Part shown: positions 60,026 to 61,524 of the stretch, piece after piece
How the letters are laid out: every line of letters begins with the position of its first letter
Position numbering within the stretch: the stretch's first letter is position 1
Origin: Bacteroidota bacterium
GTDB taxonomy: Bacteria; Bacteroidota; Bacteroidia; Flavobacteriales_D; UBA2798
Assembly: GCA_049322335.1 (NCBI GenBank)
Contig: JBMORL010000100.1
Span: 3,723-67,722, forward strand
Reading direction: 5' to 3'
DNA length: 64,000 nt
Notes under the pieces: generated by a model
Database searches by the model: none
The model's input: only the letters and a program-made list of their open reading frames with translations
What the model was told of the DNA's origin: nothing
Position numbers and translations under genes: made by a program

Positions 60026-60613
60026 TTGCCAACTCATAACCAACACTACTGGGATAACCGCTGGAAAAACAACGAAACCGGGTGGGATATCGGGCATATT
60101 TCCACTCCCCTGAAAGAATATTTCGACCAGTTGAAAGACAAAAACCTTTCTATCCTCATACCGGGATGCGGCAATGCGTATGAGGCGGAATATCTTCATC
60201 AGCAGGGCTTCAAAAACGTATATGTAGCTGACATTTCACCGCTGGCCCTGGAAGCATTCAAAAAAAGAGTGCCCGGTTTCCCTGAAAATCACCTGATGTG
60301 TGTCGATTTTTTCAACATAAAAGAAAAATTTGACCTCATAATTGAACAAACTTTTTTCTGCGCCCTGCATCCTTCTGAAAGAAAAAAATATGCGGATAAA
60401 ATAGCCGGATTGCTGAATACCGGGGGAAAACTAGCGGGATTGCTGTTTGATGATGTACTGAATACCGATCATCCTCCCTATGGCGGAAATAAAGCAGAGT
60501 ATGCTGCAATTTTTGCTGAAAAATTTGTAACGCATACGATGGAAACCGCTTATAATTCTATAAAACCCCGAGAGGGACGCGAATTGTTTATAAATCTGCG
60601 GCTAAAAAGATAA
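60026..60613 (+). CDS. TPMT-family SAM-dependent methyltransferase
   Basis: YWDNRW..ETGWDIG, ILIPGCGNAYE, EQTFFCAL, PPYGG. Confidence 0.9.
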   Translation: MPTHNQHYWDNRWKNNETGWDIGHISTPLKEYFDQLKDKNLSILIPGCGNAYEAEYLHQQGFKNVYVADISPLALEAFKKRVPGFPENHLMCVDFFNIKEKFDLIIEQTFFCALHPSERKKYADKIAGLLNTGGKLAGLLFDDVLNTDHPPYGGNKAEYAAIFAEKFVTHTMETAYNSIKPREGRELFINLRLKR

Positions 60614-60656
60614 ATATTTTTTATTGTGAAAAAACATAAGGCCGGATATATGTTAT

Positions 60657-60854
60657 GGCCTCTTTTGCGTGCCGTAGTATTTTCGAAAATCCTTCGTGCG
60701 GTGGGCCCGTGAGTAGTGACCCACGAGGCCCGCCAGCCGGATACAAACGCCTGGCGGGACGGCTTGGGTCTCGTGAGGAGAAGGATTTTCAGAAAATCAA
60801 GGCGTGCAAAAGAAGCCTTGACTTTTTGTTTCTTTTGTGTCAAGACAAAAGAAA
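60657..60854. ncRNA. Candidate structured RNA or non-autonomous palindromic element with a terminal pseudoknot
   Basis: Nested long stems (60657-60673/60801-60817; 60679-60695/60780-60797) and a terminal 10-bp hairpin whose loop is complementary to an upstream CTTGAC. Confidence 0.6.
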
Positions 60855-60936
60855 GAACGAAAATAGATTTCAAAGGAAAAGTGCGTTTAAACAGGATAAA
60901 ACCTTTGAAGAGTTAAATAATATTGTTTCATTTTCC

Positions 60937-60944
60937 TAAATTTG
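60937..60944 (+). promoter_or_regulatory. -7 element TAAATTTG (near-leaderless NlpC/P60 gene)
   Basis: TAnnTTTG 4 nt before GTG 60949. Confidence 0.6.
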
Positions 60945-60948
60945 CATC

Positions 60949-61524
60949 GTGAAAGCCAGGTATTTGACATATTTTCTCCTGCTTTTTTGTATTTCGGTTT
61001 CTGCCCAAACAGATTCCACCGTTGCCGATTCGCTTATATTTTCATCTGTCAAAGCGCATTACACTGAAAAAACAGATAAAAAAATACCTTCCGACAGCGA
61101 ACTGGTGTCCTTTTTCCAAAGCAAAGGTGTTGTCTTCGATCCCGAATGTTCGCGACTGGATTTATACCGCGAAATTTACGGTTGGCTGGGCGTGAAATAC
61201 AAATATGCCGGCCTCACCAAATCGGGAGTGGATTGTGCAGGATTTGTGAAAAATATCTGTAATCCCGTTTATGGCACAAAACTTTCAGGCAGCGCGGGCG
61301 ACCATTTTAACCGGTGCATTCCCATTGAGCGCGAAGACCTGGAAGAAGGCGACCTTGTTTTTTTCAAGATCAACAAAACCTATATCTCGCATATAGGTAT
61401 TTATCTCGGTAACGGTAAGTTTGCACATGCAGCCGTTCATGGTGGCGTGATGATAAACGATCTTTCTGAAGAATATTACAACAAATACTATTACATTAGC
61501 GGAAGATTAAAATCCAACGGATGA
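60949..61524 (+). CDS. NlpC/P60 (C40) peptidase
   Basis: WLGVKYKYAG, GVDCAGFV, GDLVFF, HIGIYLG..F.HA. Confidence 0.92.
   Translation: MKARYLTYFLLLFCISVSAQTDSTVADSLIFSSVKAHYTEKTDKKIPSDSELVSFFQSKGVVFDPECSRLDLYREIYGWLGVKYKYAGLTKSGVDCAGFVKNICNPVYGTKLSGSAGDHFNRCIPIEREDLEEGDLVFFKINKTYISHIGIYLGNGKFAHAAVHGGVMINDLSEEYYNKYYYISGRLKSNG

Follow-up and report, generated by a model that had tools for sequence, protein, structure and literature searches.

Several described systems share part of their design with the repeat reported here; they are cited from the accessible portions of their texts. The closest is TwoAYGGAY (RF01731), in which one common stem carries two AYGGAY-loop hairpins; it is catalogued as a probable RNA (PMC2864571). 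According to a preprint (10.64898/2026.09.22.753630), its extended form consists of an elongated basal stem followed by a 3' pseudoknot and is largely confined to Pseudomonadota; the word 'triplex' is absent from the portion of the preprint text available. The REP, BIME and REPIN repeats, which go with RAYT (Y1 HUH) proteins, are non-coding, intergenic, multi-copy hairpins without target duplication that occur in pairs, arrays and mosaics (PMC3733652). Repeated intergenic sequences of the TM-ECO/PIT/BoxC type can adopt an intrastrand triple helix, and intrastrand triplex repeats in bacteria have been linked to genome instability (PMC4666352). The knots of telomerase RNA, SAM-II/SAM-V and preQ1-II place a U-rich first loop in the major groove of an A-U-rich second stem; these functional RNAs are single-copy and have a ligand or a protein as partner (PMC7583470). 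The mobile or repeat candidates of the Breaker GC-IGR work, MRSC-65-2 for example, are multi-copy, covarying, inconsistent in orientation and possibly DNA-acting (PMC11109978).

How does the present locus compare? The element lies in a 64,000-nt stretch of a Bacteroidota contig (JBMORL010000100.1); that stretch is called the window below. The element is a dispersed ~200-bp non-coding repeat, one strand of which forms a rod that varies and a 3' pseudoknot head that is conserved (Table 1). As far as the preprint text goes, it has the architecture of extended TwoAYGGAY, a long basal stem and then a 3' pseudoknot, and shares with it the many intergenic copies, the occurrence in pairs, the association with REP-like repeats and the suspected mobility; unlike TwoAYGGAY, its rod has no RF01731 match and its host belongs to the Bacteroidota, not the Pseudomonadota. 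It is likewise an intergenic, multi-copy palindromic repeat found in pairs, arrays and mosaics, as REP/REPIN sequences are, and differs from these in its length of ~200 nt and in its knot and predicted triplex (PMC3733652). The terminal GTAG or CGTC tag of REP/REPIN is absent; the element ends in G[G/A]C[C/A]T and the A-rich arm, and GTAG occurs in the window's rod family in an internal loop only. Like TM-ECO/PIT/BoxC it is a repeat in which an intrastrand triple helix is possible, and its strand order (third strand, pyrimidine, purine) corresponds to class IV of PMC4666352; those repeats form a different triplex class, and membership was rejected because the triplex predicted here is of the pyrimidine motif with class IV order. 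The head has the U-rich first loop and A-U-rich second stem of the telomerase and riboswitch pseudoknots, but in the element, a dispersed repeat, the unpaired third loop that is usual in H-type pseudoknots with triples is missing (PMC7583470). MRSC-65-2 is a single stem with UYCCGG repeats, unlike the element; overlap with the other 249 candidates is possible (PMC11109978, accessible portion). Two further candidates were rejected: the ncRNA arrays of UG27 reverse transcriptases, which lie beside the RT and two accessory genes in prophages (copies of the element are dispersed among housekeeping genes, with no RVT_1), and Y RNA (no Rfam match and no Ro60/TROVE PF05731 match, in a search whose controls gave a signal in only 2 of 14 cases).

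Structure of the element in the window

The element lies between a TPMT-family gene and an NlpC/P60 gene, in a spacer of 335 bp.

Table 1. Features of the element and its flanking genes (window coordinates)
Feature	Position	Strand	Remarks
Whole element	60657..60854	+	Rod 60657-60817 and 3' pseudoknot head with predicted triplex, 60817-60854
Outer stem, 5' strand	60657..60673	+	Starts with the conserved end motif G[G/A]C[C/A]T
Outer stem, 3' strand	60801..60817	+	Terminates in AG[C/T]C
Second stem, 5' strand	60679..60695	+	Partner 60780-60797, one bulge
Second stem, 3' strand	60780..60797	+	Partner 60679-60695
Inner GC-rich arm	60716..60772	+	Helices 60716-60722/60766-60772 and 60727-60735/60752-60760, internal loop
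Pseudoknot stem, 5' strand CTTGAC	60817..60822	+	Pairs with the head loop
T-run linker	60823..60828	+	Predicted third strand on 60846-60850, then G linker
Head hairpin	60829..60854	+	10-bp stem (60829-60838/60845-60854), loop GTCAAG 60839-60844, A-rich 3' arm
TPMT-family methyltransferase (host gene outside the element)	60026..60613	+	PF05724, E=1.9e-27
NlpC/P60 protein (host gene outside the element)	60949..61524	+	PF00877, E=3.5e-23

An earlier note on this DNA had described the outer stem with two G-U pairs, the second stem with one bulge, and the terminal hairpin with a loop complementary to CTTGAC; all were located as claimed. The window copy also has a C60660.A60814 mismatch in the outer stem, absent from that description, and one mismatch in each inner helix. 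The folding z-score is -7.8 on the + strand and -6.8 on the - strand, with 0 of 200 shuffles equally stable, and the core is indeed more GC-rich than its surroundings (69% in 60696-60779 vs 38% and 35% in the flanks). The earlier note did not recognise it as a tRNA, SRP, tmRNA, 6S or a named riboswitch; in an Rfam scan nothing overlapped the element at E<=10. Scans of ten loci with other copies gave 20 matches, all far under gathering scores, and for 20 loci with divergent heads the sole match was a group II intron. No terminator-like site was detected in 60500-61000 and no promoter upstream of the element. A TAnnTTTG box, the Bacteroidota -7 promoter consensus, is present at 60937-60944, just before the start of the NlpC/P60 gene, which is therefore probably transcribed from a promoter of its own that lies downstream of the element.

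Copies in this genome and covariation of the rod

BLAST of the genome revealed nine full-length copies, all intergenic and beside unrelated housekeeping genes, so that the element is multi-copy, not single; in addition, two matches cover part of a head and one is a duplicate at an assembly gap. The matches of the eight other copies start at or within a few bases of 60657 and stop at the A-rich arm. At one locus (L393, G000:C81:53400-54100) a ~25-bp near-copy of the downstream gene's start is found just upstream of the element, which is followed by an assembly gap with a second head.

Eight copies, with pairwise identities of 69-92%, were aligned; the ninth carries an insertion and was excluded. 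Of 510 cells in the consensus structure (five nested helices and the knot), 99.0% are paired. Compensatory change is present: two-sided change is seen in 22 of the 64 consensus pairs, 0 of 500 shuffles attain this support, and sliding the register drops pairing to 44-57%. RNAalifold recovers the nested helices of the consensus, including both of the inner arm. The outer stem is paired in 97.5% of cells with two-sided change in 8 of 15 pairs, the second stem in 100% (5 of 17), the two inner helices in 98.2% and 98.6% (two two-sided pairs each) and the head hairpin in 100% (4 of 10). The earlier note had also drawn partly mutually exclusive inner stems. The complementary strings exist, but CACGAGGCCC/GGGTCTCGTG is paired in 87.5% of cells with no two-sided change across copies, and GTGGG/CCCAC in 82.5%, a value matched by 328 of 500 shuffles. 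As neither stem has support above shuffles, there is no evidence for a switch.

The 3' pseudoknot

Knot pairing was measured in 135 heads retrieved by a pattern that fixed the T-run and the hairpin arms only and thus did not select for it. The hexamer before the T-run pairs 6/6 with the loop in 95 of these heads and at least 5/6 in 115; permutations gave a mean of 42.7 perfect pairings and a maximum of 55 (1000 permutations). Heads with unrelated hexamers keep the pairing too. The CTTGAC/GTCAAG pseudoknot of the earlier note is supported, with one qualification for the window copy. Here the outer stem and the pseudoknot both lay claim to C60817, and the loop joins the hairpin arms with zero unpaired linker bases in between, so that full pairing of one knot helix may preclude full pairing of the other.

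A predicted triple helix in the head

Read in parallel register, the T-run that follows CTTGAC is a mirror of the A-rich arm. The earlier note missed this feature, which predicts a pyrimidine triple helix in the head, in the window copy with T60823-T60827 on C60846-A60850. At the level of sequence the head fits the pyrimidine motif, in which the third strand runs parallel to the purine strand with T on A and C on G. Four copies in the genome have four extra bases jointly in the T-run, the hairpin 5' arm and the 3' arm. Among 51 distinct heads from searches that left the run lengths free, the T-run equals the A-run plus one in 42 (rho 0.77). Counting the parallel register in 148 distinct heads (L447-L460 excluded), which are related and in many cases come from fixed-run-length patterns, gave T/A 700, T/C 65, C/G 18, T/G 11, C/C 7, T/T 3 and C/A 0; the 18 C-on-G cases compare with 5.5 in permutations (maximum 9 of 2000 permutations). 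In a forward test, C-T in the linker was answered by G-A at the predicted place of the unconstrained arm in 14 of 14 matches, which come from 4 of 251 genomes. Two orthologous pairs show foreign palindromes that entered where the T-run ends, and in one case behind the loop, without disrupting the knot or the predicted triplex. The inserts (L419, L438, L400, L401) are small palindromes or hairpins of 24-54 nt, and the T-run end may be a hotspot for a second repeat family.

Downstream of the head at L454 (G280) is a second head type, whose alternating AG purine tract is mirrored by a CT-alternating linker; from its sequence it would be a strong natural triplex variant. MT839992.1 (L446) is filed as a bacteriophage and resembles a host chromosome fragment with an integrase; its long-form head has five T, C, five T opposite four A, G, six A. 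In the literature searched, mostly open-access, no paper on a triplex-pseudoknot bacterial repeat was found.

Distribution and modular design

Only the 3' head could be aligned in relatives, with matches in 15 of 41 genomes, this one included. Exact head patterns occur in 21 of 401 genomes of the phylum (0 control matches), and one exact pattern in 57 of 151 genomes of the order (4 control matches). A scan of the collection gave at least 123 loci, mostly Bacteroidota-titled; an isolate of the Fusobacteriota, Propionigenium maris DSM 9537, has 34 heads. No match to the element was found on plasmids or in scans of viral sequences, and phages gave one head-only match in an unannotated host-like scaffold plus two weak matches. 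The supplementary files for B. thetaiotaomicron that were searched contained no head motif.

The rods differ by lineage yet close alike. An upstream G[G/A]C[C/A]T partner is present for 129 of the 148 heads preceded by AG[C/T], against a mean of 39 and a maximum of 53 in permutations; other heads have rods without the G[G/A]C[C/A]T / AG[C/T] closure. The median rod is 160 nt, and the pair at closure position 2 is G:C in 92, A:T in 37 and other in 3 (n=132), the partner having been chosen by energy, which favours pairing. Rod families are genome-specific, with near-identical copies; copies are also found as tandem arrays, as tail-to-tail pairs and in mosaics with palindromes of other kinds. For instance, two rod types form fixed tail-to-tail pairs in G005 (L025, L027, L028), three tandem copies are spaced ~386 bp apart in G216, and G510 has a cluster of six. 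Some copies stay in place. Seven loci (L103, L127, L131, L145, L225, L230, L231), four of them Chryseobacterium-titled, keep a copy at one site, flanked by a CoA-transferase-like gene on one side and a gene of unknown function on the other, where domestication is possible, and copies are conserved at purT in two genomes.

Relation to TwoAYGGAY

The RF01731 model gave no match on the element or its copies, and 0 matches both in this genome and in 61 genomes of the class of another (G552), with controls likewise silent in each search. At a genuine TwoAYGGAY locus (L598, an Rfam model match), a head of the same design lies just downstream. At Rfam-confirmed Pseudomonas TwoAYGGAY loci it starts ~36 nt downstream and comprises a short knot strand, a T-run, a G, a hairpin with a knot-complementary loop, and an A-rich arm. 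A pattern taken from L598, in which the A-rich arm was not specified, retrieved 23 loci, mostly one chromosomal site; 10 of the 20 scanned, and L655, are Rfam-confirmed TwoAYGGAY with an A-rich arm. None of 120 AYGGAY-pair loci gave a head in a generic scan, which missed L598, a locus with an insertion in the loop of its head. The 3' knot of the preprint is most likely a head of the type described here, in which case the window element would not belong to TwoAYGGAY but would be a variant from Bacteroidota whose rod is different.

Empty sites and target sequences

The earlier note had proposed looking for empty sites between the TPMT and NlpC genes. TPMT and NlpC/P60 are neighbours in four relatives, and in all four the spacer between them is without the element; four further loci are not syntenic. 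Six sites were compared between G004 and G008: two are filled in one and empty in the other, two are filled in both and two gave no call. Both filled/empty indels take in ~70 nt of the 5' flank, and their ends do not coincide with the conserved boundaries. They therefore do not define insertion ends, and imprecise loss explains them as well as precise insertion does.

Sequencing runs were compared over window 60608-60923. Contigs of runs X2, X6 and X8 continue from TPMT into the element, and two runs from different studies, X1 and X7, have other sequence just upstream of 60924, with loose ends of 146 and 116 nt and similar last bases. The end motif common to the X1 and X7 sequence is absent from this genome, and the sequence suggests an alternative allele of the spacer. 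Parts of the spacer have no read cover in run X1, which proves nothing by itself.

The earlier note saw no target-site duplication, and none emerged over many loci: the mean longest flank match is 4.65 vs 4.50+-0.10 permuted (n=127). The 3' end is formed by the head and does not repeat the 5' end in inverted orientation. A MITE of a DDE insertion sequence was accordingly rejected, as there are neither terminal inverted repeats at both ends nor a target-site duplication.

Search for a partner enzyme

A search for an autonomous partner found no mobile gene recurring beside 335 heads (415 adjacent ORFs), and ten paired or clustered loci contain no cargo. Strong Y1_Tnp matches are present in 16 of 19 copy-rich vs 7 of 21 pattern-negative genomes, a comparison in which the threshold was set post hoc and related genomes are not independent. 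None of 29 Y1 loci carries a head, and a Y1 match is absent from G475, which has 23 copies, and from G005. No clear link was seen for Y2_Tnp (3/19 copy-rich vs 2/21 pattern-negative genomes) or for RVT_1 (11/19 vs 8/21), and this genome has no RVT_1.

In REP/REPIN systems with a RAYT the repeat flanks its cognate Y1 gene; in this genome other palindromes stand beside the Y1 genes. There are five of these RAYT-like Y1 genes, and each of them, like a GIY-YIG gene (L403-L407, L410), has its own flanking palindromic repeats, in units that are REPtron-like and unrelated to the element. Among the five loci listed, the GIY-YIG genes of this genome likewise have other palindromes beside them. It is of note that G144, with 33 Y1_Tnp and 13 Y2_Tnp matches, has no head by exact patterns. 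A group II intron near one G280 copy was rejected as a partner; it starts ~135 nt past the head, after another hairpin.

Which strand matters, and as DNA or RNA?

Both neighbours were called for 158 heads. Co-directional spacers hold 51 sense and 42 antisense heads, so orientation is unrelated to host transcription; 41 heads lie in convergent and 24 in divergent spacers. Within 40 nt upstream, TAnnTTTG, the Bacteroidota promoter box consensus, was found in only 3 of 123 cases. Replication-strand bias, which in its lagging-strand form is a hallmark of IS200/IS605-type elements, was not detected (80 positive and 84 negative of 167 loci).

One strand matters: G-U/G-T pairs persist while A-C pairs have been removed, with ratios of 16:0 for the alignment and 15:3 for the knot. 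With RNA parameters the + strand folds better in 114 of 132 rods; for the window copy the gap between strands is ~10 kcal/mol as RNA and <1 as DNA. The 5' boundary is a pyrimidine followed by G (88% pyrimidine at -1), which resembles a transcription start. C(GNA)G mini-hairpins, which are very stable in DNA, occur in 27 of 84 clustered rods on the folded strand vs 12 on the other; shuffles gave 12.8+-3.2 (maximum 19 of 30 shuffles), an enrichment of about twofold. GNRA loops are not enriched in these 84 rods and C(TTCG)G is present in only 2. At the predicted tips, GNA accounts for 10 of 26 triloops, GNRA for 2 of 38 tetraloops and UUCG for none; the tip of the window's own rod family is not a GNA loop.

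Discussion

The earlier note had proposed a non-autonomous mobile element or an undescribed ncRNA. Its general outline stands, given the many covarying copies, the empty orthologous sites, and the lack of an Rfam match and of a target duplication. 'Undescribed' does not stand entirely, as the head design matches that 3' of Pseudomonas TwoAYGGAY and the available preprint text reports a 3' pseudoknot there. What is new is the predicted triple helix and the cross-phylum reach; the architecture of rod plus 3' knot is already in the preprint, in the portion available.

We tentatively favour a non-autonomous single-stranded-DNA mobile repeat, similar to REP/REPIN and moved in trans, probably by an HUH (RAYT-like Y1) nuclease. 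One strand would be exposed as single-stranded DNA in replication or transcription, and rod and head would fold on it; the head and the G[G/A]C[C/A]T/AG[C/T]C junction would serve as the handle for an enzyme, and this putative enzyme would cut and rejoin the strand to give new copies, which would also explain how one head comes to sit on unrelated rods. The nine intergenic copies, the empty orthologous sites, the indifference to host transcription, the GNA-type loops, the REP/BIME-like arrays and mosaics and the more frequent Y1_Tnp in copy-rich genomes speak for such a mobile DNA, and we infer transposition. Against it are the lack of a recurring enzyme gene, the Y1 loci without heads, the Y1-free G475 and G005, and the absence of replication-strand bias. 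The empty-site indels fit imprecise loss equally, the retention of G-U/G-T and purging of A-C pairs suits RNA at least as well, and the GNA enrichment is only about twofold and missing at the tip of the window's rod family.

It is possible, though doubtful, that the element acts as RNA instead, as a read-through module or a structured transcript that carries a U.A-U triple helix at its 3' end. Like that of the telomerase knot or an ENE, this helix would protect the 3' end or bind a protein, and the element would be copied via an RNA intermediate or recombination. The strand preference under RNA parameters, the tolerance of G-U but not A-C pairs, the start-like 5' boundary and a head at the 3' end with its A-rich strand last all agree with this, H-type knots with U.A-U triples are known in RNA (PMC7583470, accessible text), and TwoAYGGAY itself is listed as a probable RNA (PMC2864571, accessible text). 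An RNA is harder to reconcile with an orientation independent of host genes, the missing upstream promoter box, the lack of enrichment of RNA-type tetraloops, and RVT_1, which is absent from this genome and has no clear link to copy number. That some copies stay at one site across several Chryseobacterium-titled records suggests a host role. A host-retained DNA structural element (a protein-binding site, polymerase roadblock or recombination hotspot), multiplied by recombination or gene conversion with no dedicated transposase, would account for this and for the conservation at purT, for convergent spacers being commoner than divergent ones and for the imprecise indels, and has a precedent in the triplex repeats tied to instability (PMC4666352, in part). 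We nevertheless consider it improbable, as the patchy presence across the order and the genome-specific rod families of near-identical copies are more easily explained by active copying. A cis-regulatory switch, intrinsic terminator or self-cleaving ribozyme of the neighbouring genes is very unlikely: riboswitch classes do employ H-type knots with triples (PMC7583470, in part) and the conserved non-canonical junction at the rod base could be an active site, but the neighbours are unrelated housekeeping genes in all orientations, neither an Rfam match nor a terminator-like site was found, and the mutually exclusive stems do not covary.

A broader reading, speculative and on balance doubtful, is that of a cross-phylum superfamily of mobile single-stranded-DNA elements, in which the triplex-pseudoknot head would be the transposase recognition end and the interchangeable rods its cargo. 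TwoAYGGAY would then be just one of these rods, and a number of orphan 'RNA motifs' would turn out to belong to mobile DNA. A natural triple helix backed by three-way covariation across phyla is rare, and here it is predicted in an abundant bacterial repeat. Should the element act as RNA, it would constitute a widespread bacterial triple-helix RNA module; should the mobile DNA explanation that we favour be true, the head would represent an unrecognised way of marking mobile DNA, and orphan motifs of the TwoAYGGAY type would be recast.
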